A stretch of DNA of 64,000 nucleotides, taken from contig JBNZDD010013726.1 of assembly GCA_050575255.1 (NCBI GenBank), positions 1,900,409-1,964,408 of the forward strand, given 5' to 3'. Shown one piece after another: positions 7,926 through 62,362 of this stretch. The notes beneath the pieces are model-generated. The model did no database searches and was not told the origin of the DNA. It saw only the letters and a program-made list of their open reading frames with translations. This DNA comes from Harriotta raleighana. Its lineage: Eukaryota. The first letter of the stretch is position 1, and every line of letters begins with the position of its first letter. Made by a program: the position numbers and the translations under genes.

Positions 7926-10900
7926 GTGAGTATTAATGAATGCAATTGCAATTCAACTTGCAATGAAGAAGCTATTGAGGATTTCACTTGTGTAATAAAA
8001 AATAATAATCCTTGTATTTGATATAGCGCTCTATCATTTCTTCGAGATGGCTCAATGCGCTTCACAGAATATTACTGTAAAGTGAATTGACTTTACTGTC
8101 TGAAAAAGGTCTACATCACCAATACACAAAACTCCACAGTAACGTCCTCTGCCTTCAGCAATTCAGCTCCCTATGCTCTGAGACGCCGTCCGGCGTGGAG
8201 GGCCCTATACAAATTGAAGTTGTTGTTGCTGTTGAACTCAATGGATAGATCTGCTCCTTAAACAACATTTATAATGCGCCTTTCACGTTGGGAGGATATC
8301 CCATTAACCATAAAGTCTCCATAAAGCAATCGGAGATAATGCTTTCCAATAATTAGTATGATATAAATTGCACATTTTTAACTTTTTCGCGTCAAAGTCA
8401 CAAGCACAAGCCACATTAAAAATCAGGAAACTGGAGCTGAAGAGATGCAGGAGGGAGGACAGATGGTGGAGAAGGATGGAGTGAGATCATTAAGAGTTTT
8501 GGTCCTTTAGTTTTTGTGTTATTTTTGAAAAAATGTTTTGTTTTTTCAGCAGGGCTAAGTGGTGACATTGATTGAAATTATTTCAGAATTTCTGTTGATT
8601 TAATGAGGAAGCTTATGTTTGCTGTGTCTGGCCATTTCATAGCTGAGAATTACAGCTTTTTTACTGTTTAGAAATTAAGACTCTTTTTAAAGCTACAGCT
8701 CAGTCGTCACCACCACCATCACCACCACCACCCAACTGCCTCTCCCTGTGGTTTCACTGTGCTCATGGTCCTTTCTCAAGTTTTGAAGTTAATTGTATAG
8801 TGGGCGATGGCATTAACAGTGCCAAGTAAATCAATACTCTTGTCATCTTTGCTAGATTGCAGCTCAGTTGCACTGCCAAGTAGAGGTTGGGGACACCACT
8901 GGGGAGAGAAGCAAAATTAGACCGTGAGCTCCATCCAGCCTACTCATACTTGTCCCCTGCTGCTGAGCAAGGCAATTGGCATCAAAGCACACATGGGGCA
9001 ATCTTGCTTCTGAACTGCAAATGATGTGTGTCCAGTATGGGACCCAATTCAGCAATAGGATAATTAGCAATTGACCTCTCTATGCCCTAGATCACTGTCC
9101 AGCTGCTGCTGGAATTTGCATGTTTGAGAACCACAAAATGATCGTTGGATCAGAAGGAAAAAAAGTGGTTAAACATTTTCATATGGGGTCTGACCGAATC
9201 ACTCATGCTCATACAAGCAGTTATTTTGTTTCCTCTCTAGGGTCTGATCAAGGCAATAAAAGAATTGGACTACGAGATAAGCCACGGACGCTACACTCTG
9301 ATTGTCACAGCCATAGACCAGTGCTCAGATCGAGAGCGACGCCTCACATCCACGACTACAGTGAGTCTTTTGCCATAAAGGAAGCAGATGGCAAAAATTC
9401 TGTAAGACTTGCAACAGATCTGCTCAGCGTTAACTGAAACAGTCTGAAAGTATTTTTTTGGGGTTCCCAAACCATCCCTTCATCTTAAAGACATTTTTTA
9501 CATATTCTTCCCTCTGGCCTTCCTGATCTTAATGTTACTAATGTGCCTACATTTGAGGCACTTTATTTAGACGCAAACACAGCAGAAAATGTTTTGCAAA
9601 CAAATGTCGCCCAAAACATCCATGAAGTGAATGATTAATTTTATTGGAGGATTGTTCCCCGGTGAACAATCCTCCAATAAAATTAATCATTCACTTCATG
9701 GATGTTTTGGGCGACATTTGTCACCCAAAATTCTCCTCTCTTTTTGAATAACGTCATGGGATCTTTAACATCCCCCTGACCAGAAAGTGTGAGCTCAAAC
9801 GTTTGAAGTAGGTCTTGCCCTTACAACCTTATGACTCCGTATAAACTTCTGACTGTAGTCTTGTTAATTGAGAGCACCTTGTATGCAGAAAAATACAGTG
9901 CTTTGAAAGCTACAAAGAAAATGTTTGCTTTGTGTAGAACATATTGCTCTTGTGAGGCGAGTTGTTGACCACACTTGAATCATTGACCTCATTAAGCATC
10001 ATTTTGCAGGTTATACATCCTATTGATCTTTTCATTATTGCTTCAACTTTATACCTAACTCAGTCTCTGGACAAGCCTTTAGATCACCAATATGATACAC
10101 TATATTATCTGTTCTACTCCATATTCCAATTTGTCTATGCCAACGGTTTCTCTTCCAGCTTCCGCACCATCTTGTGCAGTGTTCCTCAGGGCTCTGTCCT
10201 CAGTCCCCTCCTCTTCAATCTCTACATGCTCCCCTTTAGTGACATTATCCATAGACATGGGGTAAATTTCCACATGTACGCAGATGACGCCCAACTCCAT
10301 CTCTCTGCCTCCATCGTTGATTCAAGGAATACTGGTGTCCTGATGGACTGCCTGTCAGACATTCAAATCCTGGATGAGAGACAACTTTCTACAGCTGAAA
10401 GTCAGCAAGACCAAGGGCCTTCTGATAGGTCTCCGCACCTCAGGCACTGGCAGCATCAGCATCCAAGGATGCACACTCCACCTCACCAAGGCAGTCAGAA
10501 TCCTGGGTGTCTTGTTTGAACTGAACTGTCCTTTCCATGCCATGACCAGCTCCGCCTTCCACCACCTCCGACATCGCCCGACTCCACCACTGCCTCACAC
10601 CTCAGGCCACAGAAACATTCACACACGGGTTTTCATCTCAAGGCTCAACTATGGCAACTTCTTTCTTGGCAGCCTCCCTAATTCTTCCCTCCACAAGCTG
10701 CAAATCATCCAAAACTGCAGCTTGTGTCTTCTCCCACACTAGGATCCATGACCCCATCATCTCCACCCTCGTCCTCCTCCACTGGCTCCCCATTCCTCAA
10801 AGGATAGAATTCAAGATCCTTGCCCTCACTTTCAAGGACCATCCAGGTCTTGCCCCCTCCTACCTCTCTGATCTTCTAACCCCCTATCAACCTCTCTAGA

Positions 10901-49779: not shown

Positions 49780-52700
49780 TCATCTCTTTTCTAGTTTCTT
49801 AAATTTGGCTTCTGTGAAAAAACAAAGCACAGCAATATGTAATTTAAACAGGAATTCAACAGGCTCGTAAGAATAAGCATTTGCATTTCTACTTCAGAAG
49901 TATTGTACACCTACAGAGTCGTTACACTTTGAAAGTTTAGGCACAAAATAAATCCCCCAAGTTACTTGGAAATTATCTCACTGGTCAATTAGTTAGGAAC
50001 CCCTTAAAGAAAGGAAACAACTTCCTGTTTAATAACACAGTCCTGGGATGAATTTCAAGTTCCTGTTCAAACCCTCTCTGTATGTTCAATTTTCCTCATT
50101 TTTATGCATCACTGAGATTCCTTATCAATTATTAAATTAATCTGGACCAACACAACACCAAAATTACACTTGATTAGCACCTTTCACATCAGGAGGACAT
50201 CTCTTGAGAAAAAGCAACATGTCTTGATGTTCTCGAGGTAAAGTCCAATGCCATGCACCAGGTGGACTCACAAGCAAATGCTTAATCCAAGTATTCATGA
50301 GAGGGGTTTTAACAATCGTGTGCCCACCAGACTGAAGGGTATTCACTGAGCAATCAGTGTAGGCCAGAGCCTTTCCTCCCTGCAGCATTTCCCTTAACCA
50401 AAAATTTACCTCACAGGTTTGCCCTGACTTTGCAAGTGGGCCAAATGAAATCCTTTTGGTTTAATGCCCAGGAGCTCTGAACACCACAAATTTATTGGGG
50501 CAACAATATCATTAAAGAGAATAAACAAAATAAAGTGCCTGTATACATGTACTGCAATTCTGAAGTATAAAATCCTATTTGTATTCGATTACATGCCATT
50601 ACTCATATATAACATTCACATGAAATTAAGTGATAAAATTACTAGTCCTACCCAGCCTTTTGGAGTATGCGTCCAGTCTGTAAGCTGCTTGTTCCAGAGC
50701 TGCTACTCGTTCCTCAATCTGATTAATCTGATCAAGGTACGGCTGCAAACTGGCATCTAGGAAACACATCATAGAGGTTTCAATTAACTGCAAGGTCGCA
50801 CAAGAAAATGGAAACAATAGATCATTAGACATGATCTGAAGAAAATATTCATTTAGTGGTAGAGTGGAATTAAAAGTTTAATAGGACAACTGATAATTTT
50901 TTATAATACTTAAAAAAGTTATCCAAAGTTTAAAAATTGCTTCCATCTTAATATAATTGGTAGCTTTACTTTTCTATACCCTACTAAACTCTGCTAATTT
51001 AACTGATGACCTAAAGCCTATCTGGGACGGACTCAATATTATCCTGGAGGAAAGTCTTTGGGTGATAATCAAGTGAAAACTGAATATAGACAGTTTTTCC
51101 TTTCCTAAGTGTCCCAAGCCAGTAGCAAGGGAGCATTGTGTGTGGCAAATGCAAGGATTATTATTATCATGCTTTAACTGCACTTTAAAAAATTAACTAC
51201 CCTACACAGCATCTAGAAAATATAGTAACAGCTTATCTTGCTCTTTTATTGACACCTTCATCATTGTTGAGAGGAGCACAGAGGAGAAAAGATCAGGAAC
51301 AAATTATTCTCTTACCCCTACCCAACACCTCTCTCCAAAAATCTTGTTGAACCAGCATTCTACCATTTTGAAACTTCAACTGTACAACTAGCAAGCTTCT
51401 TTATATCCAACGCCTGTTGATAACCAACCAGATTTCACACATTGCCTCTCACAGCCTATCCACAAGCCCACCCAACAGGCCTTCAAATATTTCAGCATTG
51501 GGTTTCAATAAAACATTTAATAATGGTTAAAATAAGTGGTAATAAAGCAAAAATCACCCCCATCACAAACTGTTGCTAAAAGTAATCCACAAACCTCATC
51601 ACTCCAAACATTAAAGTTACACAACCGTACTCTACAAAATTGCATTTCAAGGAGATAATATGCAACTATTTCCAGTAAGATTCCTTCATAAGGAACCCAG
51701 AAGTACTTAAGTAAAAAGGAGGATCCCCACTCCTAAGTGGTCTAATTTCAGAGCTGAGTTCTCATAGGCCAACATGATGTATTTTGAAACTTCATTTGGT
51801 TTCTTTGAAAGTCAAAAATGGGAACGTTATATATTAGTGTCAAATAAAAAGGCATGGGTGGGTGATTGTAAAACAAGCATCCTCATCAGCTGCATCAAAG
51901 GCATTATTAAAAACGAGCATTAGTAATCTGTTCAGTGCTGTTTTGTACAACCAACAAAACTGATTTAACTGATGACCTAAAGCCTATCTGGGACGGACTC
52001 AATATTATCCTGGAGGATAATCAATCATCACTGGCAAAAAAAACAACTTACATTCATTATTGAGGTCCTTGAGGTTACGACTAATATTTACAGCAATATC
52101 CTTCATCTCTAGGTATTTAAGACTGGTCAATTTATTCATGTTCTCCAATAGTTTATAATCTTCACAGGTAGCTGAAATACAACAAGTTCGACGTATCATT
52201 GAGTAAACATATTTCCTTGTTACTCGCAGTTTAGAAGGTTTTGCATTTAGCAGTGAAAACAGAAACAAATGAAGGCTCATTAGTTATAACCATAAGCATT
52301 TATTAAATTTGTAAAGAACTATAACCACCTAGTGGCTGATGTTTCAATGACGGATTACAGTATGAAACTGGCGCAGTGTTATTTTACCAACAACATTTTG
52401 CATTTATATAGCGCCCTTCACACCAGATGGCATCTTCTATAGAGCGCTATCAACCCAAAAGACTGGAAAAATTTACAATAACTTGCATTCTTTCACACAG
52501 AATCAATATCTCAAAGCATTACCAAACCGGAAGAAAGTGTTTAACTTTAACATAGTAACTTTGTGAGAAGATCAGACTGATCACAGGGCTACTATGATTG
52601 TACCAAAATGATAAATATTCCAATCTCACAATGATGAAAGATTGATAGGATTCCTAATTTTTTCCTGTACACCACAGCAGTTAACATCAACCAACCTGTG

Positions 52701-54081
52701 AGTTCTCCTTGCAGGTAAACAGCCATTTTGGTGAACATGTCCTTACAGAGTTCATTAACGTCTGGTTCAGATGGCTCTGTGGCTTCTTCTGCTGTTTCCA
52801 CGCCGGCATCATCTAACATGAGAGGAGAATATTTTTTAAATTTAGTGCTAAACGTTATCCAATCTCAGCTCCTGATACTTTAGTGAGTCATTTTTTCTTG
52901 GTCAGCCAACACATGCGAAAACATATCACTATGCTTAAAGGGTATCCAAAACAAACTGAAAAATCCATGCATCCCACCTATACATGGAAATTCCAGAGAT
53001 AAGATTGTTTGAAATGGAATACACACTCTCTCCCTGATTATCTAATTCCAGAAAGTATTAGATAGCGGTTGGCATAAGGCAATGCAGTGTCGGGGTACCT
53101 GCTGGAGTCTGACCAGCTAAAGTTGTATCTTACAATAAAGAAAACTGCACTGGGGACAACTGGATTCCCTCCCAGTGACTGACTGGTCTGTGCAGTTAAC
53201 AGATATCACCTGGACCAATAACTCTTGAGTGGCAAATGAAGGGGAGAGGTTGTTAAAATCAGACGAGATTACCACTCGTCATTTCTACCCAGAAGTTTGA
53301 AGGCACACGTCAATGTGGATAAGAATCGCCTGTGATTCTTCCCTTCCCCCAAAATACAGACTCCAACGAATATACGCGCACACATATTATATTATTTATT
53401 ATATTACTAATACATGTATATACATACACACGTACATATTCCCAAAGTCGTGATATCTTTACAATGTCGAATCAGTCTTAAATAAATAATATATTTGAGG
53501 AGTTATTTTTTTTAAAAAAGGGTGGATATCCCGACTNNNNNNNNNNNNNNNNNNNNNNNNNNNNNNNNNNNNNNNNNNNNNNNNNNNNNNNNNNNNNNNN
53601 NNNNNNNNNNNNNNNNNNNNNNNNNNNNNNNNNNNNNNNNNNNNNNNNNNNNNNNNNNNNNNNNNNNNNNNNNNNNNNNNNNNTTTGGATGCTCCCATTA
53701 AACACGAGGCTGCGCTGACCCGTGACCAAGACAATACCACGACGAAGGAAATTACAACGGTCAAAAGACAACTTAAACCTTGAAAAGTGACAAGGGGGGC
53801 GGCTCAGACAGCACAGCACGGGGTCTGGCCGCGGTGAGGCCTTCAATAAAGAGTGGAACTGAACAACCTCCCCCGACCCCCAACCGCGGGTCAGCCCCCC
53901 CAATCGCCCCCCAGCCTCCTGCACCTGTCTTTTTAGTCGTTCCCCCCGGAGCCTGGTAGCTTTCTCCCGAGGCCGAGTCTATAGTTTCCTGCGGTGACGG
54001 AGCACTAGCTGCGGTGGAGCTGCCGGGCCCAGGCGGCCCGGGTTCGCCCGTTATCCGCTCGCACTCGGTGCTCTCCGCCAT
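49780..54081 (-). CDS. BLOC1S2: BLOC-1 subunit 2 (BLOS2), complete; coding exons 53925-54081, 52696-52812, 52052-52171, 50652-50756, 49780-49811 (176 aa)
   Basis: Spliced protein ...[124 protein letters not shown] matches BLOC1S2; GT-AG junctions, all phase 1. Confidence 0.97.
50997..52017 (+). repeat. Identical 55-bp direct repeat (50997-51051 and 51963-52017)
   Basis: ATTTAACTGATGACCTAAAGCCTATCTGGGACGGACTCAATATTATCCTGGAGGA occurs twice. Confidence 0.9.
53537..53683. other. Assembly gap (N run) in BLOC1S2 intron 1
   Basis: Run of Ns. Confidence 0.99.
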
Positions 54082-55064: not shown

Positions 55065-55431
55065 GCTTGAAACATGTACAAACGCTTTTATTCGAATCAC
55101 GCAGAAGGAGTTACAAATGGAAATATTTCACAGAACTCATACACCAAAATAAATTCCCCTTACATCTGCCACACTGATACACAATGTGCTCACCAGTAAA
55201 ACTATGGTGGTACATTAAATTAGGTTAAAAACTCACAACAAGACATTTGTCCCCTTTACAAAAAAAACACCCAAGTATCACTTGGGTTTAAAAGGAAAAA
55301 AAACAAAGAAAACATTAAAAAGTCCACCAGATCCAATACTGTCTCCAATGTAAAAAAAAATGTGACAGGTTTCTTCATTTCAGAAAGGATTTCAAGGGTG
55401 ACATTTCTCTCATTAAAATGATCGATGTAGC
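55065..55431 (-). other. Terminal 3'-UTR exon of the hnRNP D-family gene
   Basis: Acceptor ttctgttttccag|GCT at 55431; U-rich UTR; AATAAA on the minus strand at 55087-55092; upstream donor AAG|gtaag at 57666, 35 nt after the stop. Confidence 0.7.
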
Positions 55432-56055
55432 CTGGAAAACAGAATGAACAATAACACGGTTAAGATATTCTCCCTTCAAAACACACACACTAACTGTGTG
55501 AAGTACTGGGCTGTCCGAGACATGTTTAATCTTTTATCAATATTGATTAATGGAAAATTAGTTTGAAGAGCAGACTATGCTTTGATTGGTTGGTAGCATC
55601 TTCAAGGAATTATCCAAGTCCTCCATGCTCTTGGACCCAGCCTTCAGTTTCTTAATCCAACTGCATTTATAAATATATATATTTCACACACTGCAGATGC
55701 TGCAAGAATATATAATTCCATTATCTTTAAAACTGTCCATTACAAACATGAGTCACACATCACTATTGAGCTATAGAAAGAAAAAGCAAGCATTATTTAG
55801 CAATTGGTAGTTCATTATCCAATTACACTTTTAAAAGAAAGCACATATTGTAAGAACAGCTTTATCCATTGAAGAAACAGGAGATCATGGCTATATTACC
55901 ACTTAACTTGAGCCTGTAAAGAAAATAGGACTATATAATTTTTTATTTAAAAAAGGAAAAACAATGTCTGCGTGAATGAAAGTGTATAATTAGAAGTTTT
56001 TTTTAAAAAACGGTCTAATCTTTATGGTGAGACAGAAGGTTGGAAGAGACCATAC

Positions 56056-56141
56056 CACTGGGCATCTCGAATTCTGTCCATAATGTGCAGGCTTGTGCGA
56101 ATCGTGTGGTCATGGTGACATGGCCTGCAATGAAGTTCCCA
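56056..56141 (-). other. Non-coding 3'-UTR poison (NMD) cassette exon of the hnRNP D-family gene
   Basis: tttgtacctgccag|TGGGAACTTCATTGCAGGCC...CGAGATGCCCAGTG|gtatggtctcttcc; closely resembles the recalled HNRNPD exon 9 / HNRNPDL exon 8 poison exon. Confidence 0.85.
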
Positions 56142-57700
56142 CTGGCAGGTACAAACATAACGGTACAAGTCAGAATTATACTGGTAGAATTCTTATCAGG
56201 TTGATGCTCTGATGTTTTTAAATCCCATTAAGGTACATTACCTGAGATCTTTTACTCATTACTTGTTCAAACAGGACTAGGTTATCCTTACATAATTTAT
56301 GCAAAATTCAAAAGAAAAGGTAAAATGGGAATAAAGAGTAAAATTAGTTATACCTAGATTTAATATACTTACAGTAAAATAGTATATTAGCTGGATAAAC
56401 ATGTAATAAATAAATGAATTTAAATTACTAAACAAAAATTTAAAGAGCTAGTTCAAGGACAGAATTTCAAAAATATATGCAGTCATTTAGACAAATCACT
56501 GAGTAACTTTCATTCCGTGATTAAGAAACTTATCATCATCTTCAGAAGTATGTAATTTAGGTTAGTTTGAGAAATAGAAATGACACTTTCCACCTCAGTC
56601 TTCTGATCATTATATTCTGCTCTGATGAATAACAGACATGGGATGAAATTTGAGATATTCTGTATTACCTAGGCTCCAGCATTTATGTTATTGGATCAAT
56701 TTAACATATGGTGTAAATTATTTGCACCACCACTTATACGATCTTATTTGGGGGAAAAACAGAGGGACATCAGCAACCAGACAATCTGACAAAGTGAAAA
56801 TGGGGAACCAAGTTCAAAGACTCACTTCGCCATCCAAGAATTCAGATACTCCGTGGGGAAAAAATTCAATACAGATTTATTCAAACTGTATCTAGGGAGA
56901 TACTTTAATATTACACTAAGTAAAGATATGATGAATTAAACTATTGCTTCATCTCAAGTTTTTTTTAAAAAAGGCCTTAAATAATCTGTGATGTGATATT
57001 ACATGCTTCCACATCAAAACATTTTATTTGAAAAAGTACGGTATGGTGTGTCAATATATGTATTGGTTGTAGGATTTATCCCACTGTACATTGCATTATG
57101 CTACATGCAAGGGTAAACTAGGTCCACATCGACATCCACACCACCACTTATACGGTATTGAAATCCAGTAACATTTCAATATTTTGTATCATAGGTGTTG
57201 GTGGAATCAAGAAATGTAAATAGCAAATTAAAAATTCATGAAAGTTAATTGAAAGATGGTTACCCTCATCCATATCTTTAAAGGTAATGAATGAATGGGT
57301 GACTATAGGTTTATTCAAACCAACATCCATATCAGCAGTAGAAAATTTGCACTACAAAATGCACCAACAGATTTAGTATATTATTTAGCTCAGCATCACA
57401 AAGTACATTTTAAGCAAGTAATAAAGAAAGTTTGTCTAATGAAAACTACTTTTTTTAAAAATTTGTGATGATTAAAATCCAGCTACTATAAGCTGATTTT
57501 ATGATGTGCCTCCCATTGAAGACAGACATTTTCATATATGTCAGAGTTAGTAGCCCATGTAAGGGAAATTTGAATAACATTTCACGTAAACTAAAAAAAA
57601 GAACTAGCTCTTTAATTATAAAATGTGCAAATTTACCTGAAAGACCAGTGAAACATACATCTTACCTTGTTTATGAAGAGCTTCACAATAGCCAGGCCAT

Positions 57701-60700
57701 TTAATAAGGCCTATACTGAGTTTGTGTACCACCTCCCCTTCTTGGAGCTTTACCATAACTGCCTGGTTGATCTGAAAGTAAAATTTGTCAGCATAAAATA
57801 CATTTTCGATTCTCAGTCGTAAATCACCATATGAAAATATGGCTTTGAATGCTCTTCTGGCATACAAGTGCATTTGTACCTACACGGTAACAGATAATAC
57901 ACAAAAAAACTTTGCCAGTCCAGGCTAATTAGTTCCTGAAACTTATGCATGTAAATGTACATTTCTGACACAGTGGTACTTTTCAAGTGATAGATCACAG
58001 TATTTTGAACTCTCTCTCTCTCTCATCACAAGGTATGGGATAATTAAAGTATCCCTAATTTTGAATACAGGTCATTCAAGAAAGCAACTAATGTTAGATT
58101 AGTTACCCAAGGATAATTTGCTCTTTGAAACTGCCCTACACTGTACCAGGGTTTGAATGGCTTATTGTTTGCAGATAATGCCAAACTGCTCTTTCAAATA
58201 TAAAGGTAAATGACAAATGCAGGAAATGGGAAATAAATTTTTGGAAATCCAAACACTTGCATATTCGTCCAAAAAATTAAGAATTTTAAAATAATTGAAA
58301 GCAAGCTAATGATGCTCCAATAGTAAAATGGTGTGAAGAAGAACTGTTCAGGTATATTAAATTTGTAAATAAATCTGTCAGGTCACTTGTTCCTGGAATT
58401 TCTTCAATTTACAAATGAGAAAAGGGTTTTGGCATATAAAACTTACTGTTATAATCACCATATCCTTGTCCATACCCATAATAGCCATAGTTGTATGCTG
58501 GGTAGTCATAGCCGCTATACCCACCATAACCCTGGCCATAGCCATAGCTATAGTTTCCATAACTTGGGTTCCAATAGTTACTGTTGTAGCTTTGGTTCCA
58601 GTTTTGGCTTTGTCCTAGTCAGGAGAGCAAAGAAAACAAATGTATTTAAAAATTTGGATTAAAAAATGATTTATAGCTAGTTTGTAAAGGAGGAGACAAA
58701 GTTGTCTTTAATATGTAAAAGAAAATGGAGCAGTCAAGTCAAAATACAAGTCCCTTGTGGTAATGATTAAAATAAATGTTCATGGATATTTTCAGACCTA
58801 GATGCAATTTACAGAACAACGCAAAAGAAGGCAAAATATGCAGCAACACTGGTGCATGGGAGTATTCTTGCCACTGCTGCAGCTGGTAAGGGATACCATC
58901 AAGGGAAAAAAAAAACCAGAAAGGAAAAAGAAAAATGCTAAGTTTCCTATCAGAGAGTCAACCAAGAAAAGTACCTTATCAAGTGGCTGTTCTGCACGTA
59001 CACTCCAAGCAAACAACTGTGGACAAGTTAACCAACCTTGTGGGTATCGCTGTGAATCAATCCAAAGCCCACTTTCCACACAAAAAACACTGGATAGCAA
59101 ACAGGAACAAGGAAGGAATTCCCCGCTTCCCAGCAAGGAGGAACTGAAGCCAACTACAATGTCCCCATAAACTTTATTTGCCCAATTTGAACAAAAACCA
59201 TTACTATTGCTTCCTACCTTTTGATCCATCATATCCCTTGCTGCTTAATATGTTTGAAAAATAAAAGTTCTTTGCAGAATTGAATCATTTAACTATGGTT
59301 TCCAATTCCAGGAATTTGTCCAAATATACGTTTAAGTTGGTAGTTTCTTAAATATGCAAGTAGCATTTTCAGCATTAGGGTTCCTCACCTTGAGCAATGA
59401 TTCTTCCCCCGGCCCCCCACCCCCCAAAATACCCACCAAAAAGTGCTCTATAAACATAACTATAAAATGATTTGATATTTTAAATGTACTGAGACTGTTT
59501 AAAGGTTTCAATCATTTATAGCAATTTCAATACTGAATAAATTCAGTCAAATTAATCATTCAAATATCCCTTCTTTAAATACAACTTAGTAGTAGTTGCT
59601 CAATAGATACTGACATGGGTGAAAATGTACATGTGGATACTGGCGAGATGACTTCTACAAAGCTCACCAATTACCATTACAACAAAGAATTGTATCCCAA
59701 AATAAGCAGCCCTGGATAATTTACTTTATTACATTGTTACATTAAATAATGTCTGAACATTTGGTTAGAATATCCCAAACACAGTACCTCCTCTACCTCT
59801 TCCTCTACCAGAGAATCCACCTCGGCCTCCCCATTGCTGTTGCTGGTATACCTCCTTGGGCTGGGCCAGTTTGATTTCAACCTTTGGGGAAAATGTATCG
59901 AAATACAAGCTTTACTTATGTGGCAAATCAAATTAAATGAAAATACAAATCGTTAATATTCTAAAAGATTTGAATAGCTAAACTAGAAATATTTCTAATT
60001 TTTTTAGGAGGACCCCCAAAAAGTTTGGGATAAATGCCATACACCTCGAAGCTTTCCACAACCACATTTGTACCTTGCTTGTACCAACATCATGGAACTT
60101 CTTTTCCATAATCGCCTTCACTGGATTCTCATCTTTAAATGTTATGAAACAGAAACCTCTTCTCTTGTTGGTCTTCGTGTCCATTGGAAGCTCAATAGAT
60201 TCAATCTATTAAATCAAACAAAACCACTGTTAAGTAATTTTTTTCAAATTCCCTGGAAAGACGTGTGTAGCTTCACAATAACTTCATTTTGAAGCTACAT
60301 ACATACCCTCAAGGTTTAAATAACTGCAAAGGGTTTTTTAAAAATTCAATTAACTATATACAGTAAAAGCCCATTTATCCATGACTCGATGAACTGGAAA
60401 ACCAGTTGAACCGGCACCTCAAAAAAAATCCCAATTTGATAAACCGAATGTTATCCGGCAGAATAGTGCTGATGCATTTAATGAATCGATTGTCACACAC
60501 AAGTACTGGGCAGGTATATCGGCTGGCCGCTAGTGGAGCCTAAAGTCACACTACTGCCATTTTTTAAAAGTTGCGCTACTGCCATTTTTTTCCCTCCGTG
60601 GGGGCCATCATTGCAGAAGTTAAGTAGAAATAATAAAGTACTAATACAATATTCTGTTATTATAGTATCTGTTATTACTGTATTTAGTCTATTATTTAGA

Positions 60701-62362
60701 TAGTAGTGTACAACATTTACACGTAACCATACAATATTCTGTTATTATCTGTTATTATTTAGTCTATTATTAATATGGTATGTGTTAAAATAATTTTCAA
60801 TTAAAAACAATTCTTTAAAAAACCGTTCAACCGGAAAGCCGTTTAACCGGGACTGGCCGGTCCCATGGGTGCAGGATAAACAAGCTTTGACTGTAGTGTG
60901 AATTTGTTATTCCAGCTCAGGTTCTGGAACATTCCATTATTCAGCAAGGTGTTCAGAAACACTTAAATACAAGGGAAAAAATAAGGGGAAAAAATTAATG
61001 TATTGATGTCTTCAACACAAGAGATGATCCAAGGTCTGGGACTTTCAAGGAACTTAAAGGTTAGCTGTTGTTTATATGTTTCTAAGAAAAATAATGAGTA
61101 TCCTAATACAGTAAAACCTTGTTTATCCAGCACCCAAGGGACCTGGCCAGTGGAGGTTAAACAGTTTTTCCAGTTGAATGGATTTTTTAAAAACATTTTT
61201 TTTTTAAAAATTAACATTTTAAATTATTTTAACATTATTAATAATAGACTAAATAACAGAATATTGCATTACTACTTTATTTATACTTAATTTTGTAATC
61301 ACAGCCCTCACCCAACCTATTTTAGGTCAAATGGACCAAAGTAGCAACTTCTGTGTTGTAAGTTGTAATGCTTTATAGGTTAGACAAGCATCACTATGCG
61401 TGAGATTCCATTAACAGATAATAACGACCGAGGTAAAAAAAAAAGCGACTTTTAAAGGAAGCAGGAGCGATCTCTCTCTCCCTCTCTGTGTATGTGTCTC
61501 TNNNNNNNNNNNNNNNNNNNNNNNNNNNNNNNNNNNNNNNNNNNNNNNNNNNNNNNNNNNNNNNNNNNNNNNNNNNNNNNNNNNNNNNNNNNNNNNNNNN
61601 NNNNNNNNNNNNNNNNNNNNNNNNNNNNNNNNNTCTCTCTGTCCCTTTGGGTGTATATATGTGTGTGTTTCTCTCTCTTTCACTCTCTCTGTCTGTGTAT
61701 CTCTGTCTCTGTGTGTCTGTATGTGTCTCCCTCCCTCTGTATCTGAGTGTGACTCTCTCTCTCTGTGTATCTGAGTGTGTGTCTCTCTCTGTGTATCCGA
61801 GTGTGTGTCTCTCTCTCTGTATGTGTATCTCTCTGTGTCTGTGTGTCTCTCTATCCGTTTCTGTGTGTCTCTCTCCATCTGTGTGTTTGTGTGTTCCACT
61901 CTTTCACCTGTAATTGGCTGCTGCCCAAGGCTCTGAGGATCTCACCAGTTTATACCTGCCTAGTGGCCAGCCGCAAGTACTGCACTCGCGAATACTGCAC
62001 TCGCTTGCGACCGTCCATTCATTAAACGCATCATCGTTATTTGCTGGACAACTTCCGGTTAATTGAATCGGGACTTTTTTTTTTGAGGTGGCGGTTGAAT
62101 GAGTTTTCCAGTTCATTGAGTCATGGATAAACAAGATTTTACTGTAAATTGAAATATATATATATATGTATAGATTGACAAAATCATTGCAACAATTTAC
62201 CTCTCCAAACGTCCCAAAATAGTTCCTCACTTTTTCCTCTGGACAGTCGGGGTCCAAACCACCAACAAAGATCTTTTTGATTGGTTCCTTTCCTTTCATA
62301 GCTTGAGCTCTCTTCGGATCAATAACTCTCCCATCAAGTTTGTGCTCTTTATATTTCAATAC
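57701..62362 (-). CDS. hnRNP D (AUF1)/DL/AB-family RNA-binding protein, 3' part; coding exons 62201-62362, 60074-60205, 59788-59881, 58447-58614, 57701-57771 (5' exons beyond the window)
   Basis: [27 protein letters not shown] (RNP2)..RRGFCFITF (RNP1)..[19 protein letters not shown] (RGG)..Y/G-rich region..[18 protein letters not shown] (PY-NLS); exon structure typical of HNRNPD/DL/AB; exact orthology unresolved. Confidence 0.95.
60361..60893. mobile_element. MITE copy in an hnRNP intron
   Basis: TA|CAGTAAAAGCCCATTTATCC...GGATAAACAAGCTTTGACTG|TA. Confidence 0.85.
61109..62144. mobile_element. MITE copy, inverted relative to 60361-60893, expanded by a CT/GT microsatellite and an assembly gap
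   Basis: TA|CAGTAAAACCTTGTTTATCC...GGATAAACAAGATTTTACTG|TA. Confidence 0.82.
61470..61905. repeat. (CT)n/(GT)n compound microsatellite with an N gap at 61502-61633
   Basis: Direct observation. Confidence 0.9.

Follow-up and report, generated by a model that had tools for sequence, protein, structure and literature searches.

An 86-nt segment on the minus strand of a 64,000-nt stretch of the Harriotta raleighana genome (GCA_050575255.1, contig JBNZDD010013726.1, positions 1,900,409 to 1,964,408; hereafter the window) is, in the reading to which we give a probability of roughly 0.7, an alternatively spliced 3′-UTR exon belonging to a fourth member of the hnRNP D family. On this reading it is a homologue of the HNRNPD (D) and HNRNPDL (DL) poison exons, and its inclusion would lead to NMD under feedback from the D-family proteins. 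The available sections of PMC5824352 describe human HNRNPD exon 9 and HNRNPDL exon 8 (uc.144) as UPF1-sensitive 3′-UTR poison exons, and it is already known that D and DL regulate themselves and each other by AS-NMD; what is new is a fourth, apparently unnamed gene carrying the exon, a copy in an HNRNPAB-like (AB-like) gene, and retention of the exon in all four.

Host gene and exon structure

An hnRNP D-family gene, the host of the cassette, has its 3′ part on the minus strand of the window; exons 1 and 2 lie just outside the window end (Table 1). The encoded protein of 371 aa has human hnRNP DL as its best PDB match (E 3e-117), its skate orthologue contains two RRMs and CBFNT, and the RRM cores of D, DL and AB are 74-82% identical to its own. 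Exon 3 is 100% identical to a C. milii protein and 94% identical to elasmobranch proteins. Exon 6 was included in 4 of 4 related-fish runs and skipped in one of the four (X1), and the reading frame stays intact when it is skipped. Skipping of exon 6 also occurs in short shark and ray protein isoforms (P0003) and resembles the alternative D exon 7, which controls feedback ability in human cells according to the available part of PMC5824352. Two further observations concern the gene and its relatives. Intron 3 contains a multi-copy repeat with inverted ends (window 60352-62146) that is also present in D and DL introns, and a C. milii entry labelled ‘A/B-like’ (UniRef100_V9KVZ5) joins window-type RRMs to a C-terminus matching the AB-like locus of the H. 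raleighana genome; this entry looks chimeric and is probably a transcript misassembly.

The original prediction had placed the cassette with its flanks, a donor 35 nt past the stop codon and a terminal-exon acceptor at 55431, and all of these are confirmed in the sequence. The donor, AAG/gtaaga, follows 57666. With the cassette skipped, a single junction lies 35 nt past the TAA; with it included, another follows at 121 nt (under 50 and about 120 nt had been foreseen). The two forms encode the identical protein. This is the geometry of the class, with the skip junction less than 50 nt and the inclusion junction more than 55 nt from the stop.

The splice signals around the cassette are recognisable across the family. 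A branch consensus (CTGAC or CTAAC) lies at -30 to -34 in the three paralogues, and a donor-like 12-mer in the upstream intron, CAG/GTAATGTAC, is kept at -101 in D and DL and is missing from AB. Candidate roles for this motif are a U1 decoy, a silencer or a rare splice site, and no joint using it is listed in the related-fish runs. An acceptor-like TTGCAG inside the cassette (window 56124-56130, minus strand) is kept in all four family cassettes; no joint at its internal AG (56124) is listed in those runs.

Table 1. Coordinates of the host gene, the cassette with its putative signals, and the paralogous cassettes. Positions are those of the window unless a contig is named.
Feature	Position	Strand	Remarks
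Host exon 1	68814-69133 (window numbering continued)		beyond window end
Host exon 2	66021-66189 (window numbering continued)		beyond window end
Host exon 3	62201..62362	-	RRM1-RRM2 junction
Host exon 4	60074..60205	-	RRM2; joint present in 4/4 related-fish runs checked there
Host exon 5	59788..59881	-	RRM2 end and RGG start
Host exon 6	58447..58614	-	Y/G/N-rich, alternative in frame; counterpart of alternative D exon 7
Host exon 7	57666..57771	-	last coding exon; TAA 57703-57701, 35 nt UTR, donor
Donor-like intronic motif	56233..56244	-	12-mer, 103 nt before cassette acceptor
Predicted branch point and 3′ splice site	56142..56173	-	CTGAC at -32; branch role inferred from consensus
Host exon 8, predicted poison exon	56056..56141	-	non-coding cassette of 86 nt, located after the stop exon and before the terminal exon
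5′ splice site and 17-nt flank	56039..56055	-	identical in D and DL, 16/17 in AB
Intron 8	55432..56055	-	624 nt; unspliced cover (contigs or reads) in X4, X5, X7, X12
Host exon 9	55070..55431	-	terminal non-coding exon; AATAAA 55092-55087; 3′ end approximate
Difference-free block	56007..56230	-	no listed difference, window vs organism A
D cassette	contig C13523:584035-584141		107 nt
DL cassette	contig C13523:603998-604102		105 nt
AB-like cassette	contig C13559:562920-562834		87 nt

Splicing in related fish

Splicing was followed in 8 public runs of relatives, out of 14 listed, whose introns differ from the window by 4-5%; only X12 is a recorded RNA run, six runs are marked ‘RNA?’ as a guess, and X11 is unspliced across the stretch, with no joint seen. 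Each of the three joints expected from the original prediction occurs in these relatives, on exactly the predicted bases. The upstream inclusion joint (57666>56141) is present in 3 of 8 runs from three studies (X3, contig depth 52; X7, 53.7; X12, 5 reads with 4 starts), the NMD-defining downstream joint (56056>55431) in X3 only (1 of 8, depth 57.7), and the skipping joint (57666>55431) in 5 of 8 (X2, 239; X3, 53; X5, 558; X7, 48; X12, 13 reads with 8 starts). The cassette region is not covered in X1 and has unspliced cover only in X4. Both forms are made in related fish, in proportions that vary strongly between runs. Inclusion and skipping contigs in X3 have similar depth (52-58 versus 53), which is high for a decaying form, contig depth being a poor measure of level.

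The downstream intron 8 is often retained, which complicates the simple poison-exon picture. The element could work mainly through this retention, by nuclear detention or by giving a long AU-rich 3′ UTR, and junction-dependent NMD would then be minor, as the only junction of the retained form lies 35 nt past the stop. Beyond the unspliced cover of intron 8 in four runs, the X7 contig with the upstream joint does not stop at the cassette donor but extends into the intron, and X12 has its 5 upstream-joint reads with no listed downstream joint and a depth of 14-37 in intron 8 compared with 2-18 over most of intron 7; PMC5824352, in the part available, also cites proposed intron 9-containing forms of human D. 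However, a fully spliced inclusion joint does exist in X3, rarity of the fully spliced inclusion form is equally predicted by NMD, and single-cell libraries contain pre-mRNA and are 3′-biased. Furthermore, intron 8 is ATTTA-poor (1.6 per kb, the lowest of the 8 introns), and the same partial source reports that Kemmerer et al. found no forms containing intron 9 in HeLa. We regard retention as an unlikely main mode of action.

We see somewhat less chance that the segment is an NMD poison exon for which SR proteins and CLK kinases, temperature or tissue are the main determinants of inclusion, in place of D-family feedback. Inclusion does vary strongly among the related-fish runs, and heat induces the poison exon 8 of mouse Hnrnpdl, which moves from 60 to 95% over 4 degrees C (PMC7726792, available excerpt), but the homologous human exons are directly auto- and cross-regulated (PMC5824352, likewise in part) and such inputs are not exclusive of family feedback. 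No alternative that we considered fits better than a poison exon under family feedback, and both intron retention and additional inputs can coexist with it.

Homologous exons in the D, DL and AB-like genes

A search of the 1.1-Gb genome with the 301-nt cassette region returned exactly two other matches (E 3e-23 and 6e-19), which are the 3′ UTRs of D and DL. Across 14.5 kb of the window gene, no single-copy non-coding stretch other than the cassette is shared with D and DL, the remaining non-coding matches to D and DL being repeats with 4-10 local copies each. Identity to the 86-nt exon is 71/86 for the D cassette, 67/86 for DL and 51/86 for AB, with local scores against the window cassette of 134, 124 and 58, respectively, compared with at most 30 for shuffled sequences (500 each). 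The window cassette is without about 20 nt that the D and DL copies have. All four family genes of the H. raleighana genome have a common 3′ layout, in which the stop-to-donor distance is 35 nt in the window gene, 29 nt in D, 30 nt in DL and 18 nt in AB, and the inclusion junction falls 121, 136, 135 and 105 nt past the stop.

The AB-like copy, which is weak and has diverged, was not among the matches at E 1e-3 in the whole-gene comparison. Its donor flank was found by a sensitive local search (blastn E 1.6e-4), and the whole cassette lies between the donor (18 nt past the stop) and the terminal exon. The AB-like acceptor is shifted by about 3 nt, and this gene has no donor-like motif near -100.

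The proposed homology to HNRNPD exon 9 and HNRNPDL exon 8 is borne out through the same-genome D and DL cassettes, which are tied to the characterised human exons because their sizes are equal: primer products in Table S1 of PMC5824352, as far as that source is available, correspond in human to 107 nt for D exon 9 (464-357) and 105 nt for DL exon 8 (313-208). The comparison with human primers was confined to two published ones, of which the exon 8/9 junction primer matched best at the cassette 3′ end in 4 of 4 genes (10-12/18), while the other, at 11-12/21 ungapped in the four-gene comparison, was uninformative. Conservation of the D exon is the subject of Figure S5A in the same partially available paper, which may be relevant to the proposed homology.

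The cassette regions of D and DL, including about 60 nt of upstream intron, align with each other with a score of 232, closer than the proteins suggest. This likeness hints at gene conversion or at stronger shared constraint.

Phylogeny and genomic neighbourhood

Searching the genome with the exon-3 peptide identified four loci: the window gene itself, two in tandem on C13523 and a single one on C13559. The tandem pair is D and DL, 20 kb apart; the window gene sits elsewhere, on a different contig and among different neighbours. RRM cores were placed in a tree of 35 rows and 166 columns, from which four rows were left out (two DL cores that were partial, one DL core that was mis-cut and one D with an insert). 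This tree contained clades for D (98/99), DL (100/99) and AB (76/76), each including bony vertebrates, and a long-branched fourth clade (100/97) in which the window gene groups with one C. milii protein and seven proteins from sharks and rays. The AB row of H. raleighana is partial, AB exon 2 falling under N, and AB placement is weak (76/76); the branching order of the four clades is not settled by this tree. We rejected the host as an orthologue of HNRNPD, HNRNPDL or HNRNPAB, given its own clade and the presence of separate D, DL and AB-like loci.

A 30.8-Mb record carries the window-type protein in Scyliorhinus, where D and DL are on one of 277 Mb. Window-type proteins make up 11 of the 197 classified homologues, and the 10 that are named all come from cartilaginous fishes, as do the listed members of their clusters; in databases they are labelled ‘D-like’, ‘D0-like’ or ‘A/B-like’. 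Teleost ‘hnRNP D0-like’ proteins were rejected as orthologues of the window gene, since they group with D, and no bony-vertebrate orthologue was present among the 197 homologues classified. This suggests that the fourth gene was lost in bony vertebrates, in so far as a homologue search that needs shared words can indicate. Judged from the tree, the duplication that gave rise to the fourth gene is older than the split between sharks and bony fishes.

Instead of being inherited through the genome duplications of early vertebrates, the exon could have spread by later duplication or gene conversion inside the cartilaginous fishes. The tandem arrangement of D and DL would allow this, and their mutual cassette score exceeds that of either against the window cassette. 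However, the window-gene clade spans chimaeras, sharks and rays and stands beside D, DL and AB clades that include bony vertebrates, the window gene has a separate contig and separate neighbours, and the D and DL cassettes match the human exons in size. We consider a late spread improbable, and the original suggestion that the exon arose before the paralogues split is supported and extends, through the four-way homology, to the AB-like gene.

Upstream of the host lies a third SEC24A/B-type gene, and BLOC1S2 and cadherin-23 (CDH23) lie downstream; the AB-like gene adjoins Wnt8, and a second Wnt8 is on another contig. We take the host and AB-like neighbourhoods to match the paralogous regions of human 10q, 5q and 4q, and with the human positions so assumed the window gene would be the copy missing from human 10q, a putative ohnologue dating from the whole-genome doublings of early vertebrates. 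The SEC24A/B-type gene, at about 1976-1986 kb of C13726 (L011:2281-9719), is one of three such loci in the genome and may be another retained extra copy.

BLOC1S2 (window 49780-54081, minus strand) starts about 1 kb past the host poly(A) signal, and the 3′ part of cadherin-23 (window 7671-46962, plus strand) runs toward it on the opposite strand. PKD2L1 was considered for this plus-strand neighbour and rejected in favour of cadherin-23, whose C-terminal stretch gave no PDB match. Just 3′ of the D gene is a synaptobrevin-family exon (L004:4290-4610, plus strand), and retroelement reverse-transcriptase fragments are present at window 9956-10516 (plus strand), L012:6552-7133 and L004:2848-3450. 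When metagenomes were scanned for the exon start in vertebrate copies, 53 loci turned up, all 53 of them chance 17-mers with no donor flank or hnRNP coding sequence, and the ESM Atlas returned family-level clusters only.

Sequence constraint

A contig of organism A aligned to window 55404-56355 has 42 differing letters, of which 37 are listed, all outside 56007-56230. The flanks of this 224-nt block diverge by about 5% (37 listed differences in the other 728 nt of the contig), and at this rate about 11 differences would be expected within it (P ~1e-5, for boundaries chosen afterwards); for the 86-nt exon alone the lack of differences has P ~0.04. Contigs of X7 (56007-56141) and X3 (56055-56143) show zero differences from the window. 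Conservation among the four genes is concentrated at the branch point, the acceptor, the 5′ half of the exon and the donor.

A structured RNA cis-element was rejected as an explanation, with no stable fold (z 0.18), 1 of 29 pairs compensated and no Rfam match near threshold. More broadly, the suggestion that the region is conserved for some other reason (a DNA enhancer or RNA structure) or is a decaying relic, with splicing as noise, can point to the window exon, shorter than those of D and DL, and to the diverged AB copy, but it is largely refuted by conservation centred on the splice signals, joints at the exact boundaries, the lack of a covarying fold and the strong constraint among close relatives, and is very improbable.

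Discussion

On the reading that we prefer, the 86-nt exon would act as one element of a feedback circuit. The choice between one junction and two past the stop, with the same protein made from either form, is observed, as is production of both forms in run-dependent proportions in the RNA of related fish. The fully spliced inclusion form would very probably be degraded by NMD, going by the 50-55 nt rule and the human homologues. A high nuclear level of the host protein, or of D, DL or AB, would then probably promote inclusion, such that the family buffers its total dose. The four-way homology, the tree and the neighbours together point to a single origin of the exon that predates the duplications from which D, DL, AB and the fourth gene come. 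Beyond the original prediction are the status of the host as a separate fourth gene, the AB-like copy and the frequent retention of intron 8.

More tentatively, and at somewhat less than even odds, the exon may be older than the jawed-vertebrate duplications of the hnRNP D family and functional in all four cartilaginous-fish descendants as a four-node dosage-buffering loop, of which the human D and DL pair would be a remnant, the HNRNPAB copy having been overlooked or lost; the four-way alignment and the motif about 100 nt upstream would then represent the core cis-code. We found no publication on a fourth hnRNP D-family member in cartilaginous fishes and none on an HNRNPAB poison exon, in literature listings that covered a minority of subscription journals.

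The fourth gene and the AB-like copy would date the switch to before the family expansion. They also provide a natural footprint: comparing copies that separated before sharks and bony fishes parted leaves, as the conserved core, the branch point with the acceptor, the exon's first 50 nt, the donor flank of 17 nt and the donor-like motif at about -100. The available sections of PMC5824352 contain no map of the cis-elements for D and DL feedback.

The closest known systems are HNRNPD exon 9 and HNRNPDL exon 8, which are alike in family, in place after the stop exon and in junction logic, the skip junction lying 22 nt past the stop in human DL and 35 nt in the window gene (PMC5824352, from the part available). 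HNRNPDL further shares the nine-exon layout, with the cassette as exon 8 and an alternative Y/G-rich penultimate coding exon. In contrast to these genes, the host here is a fourth paralogue, its exon has 86 nt and not 105-107, a copy is also present in the AB-like gene, and intron 7 has 1524 nt compared with 310-320 nt in the same-genome D and DL genes; NMD and feedback, described for the human exons, are predictions for the window gene.

According to the excerpts available of PMC4379411, the poison exon of SRSF4 and SRSF6 was likewise inherited by vertebrate paralogues from a common ancestor, with one copy more relaxed, although the window exon differs in sitting in the 3′ UTR and bringing no new stop. 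The same excerpts stress the loss or replacement of poison exons after duplication, and this turnover among SR genes contrasts with the hnRNP D family, in which one exon is recognisable in all four genes. PTBP1/PTBP2, hnRNP L/LL and RBM5/RBM10 are, in the partially available literature, RNA-binding paralogues that similarly limit each other by unproductive splicing (AS-NMD); these are pairs, whereas the hnRNP D family would form a set of four, with cross-regulation predicted among its members.
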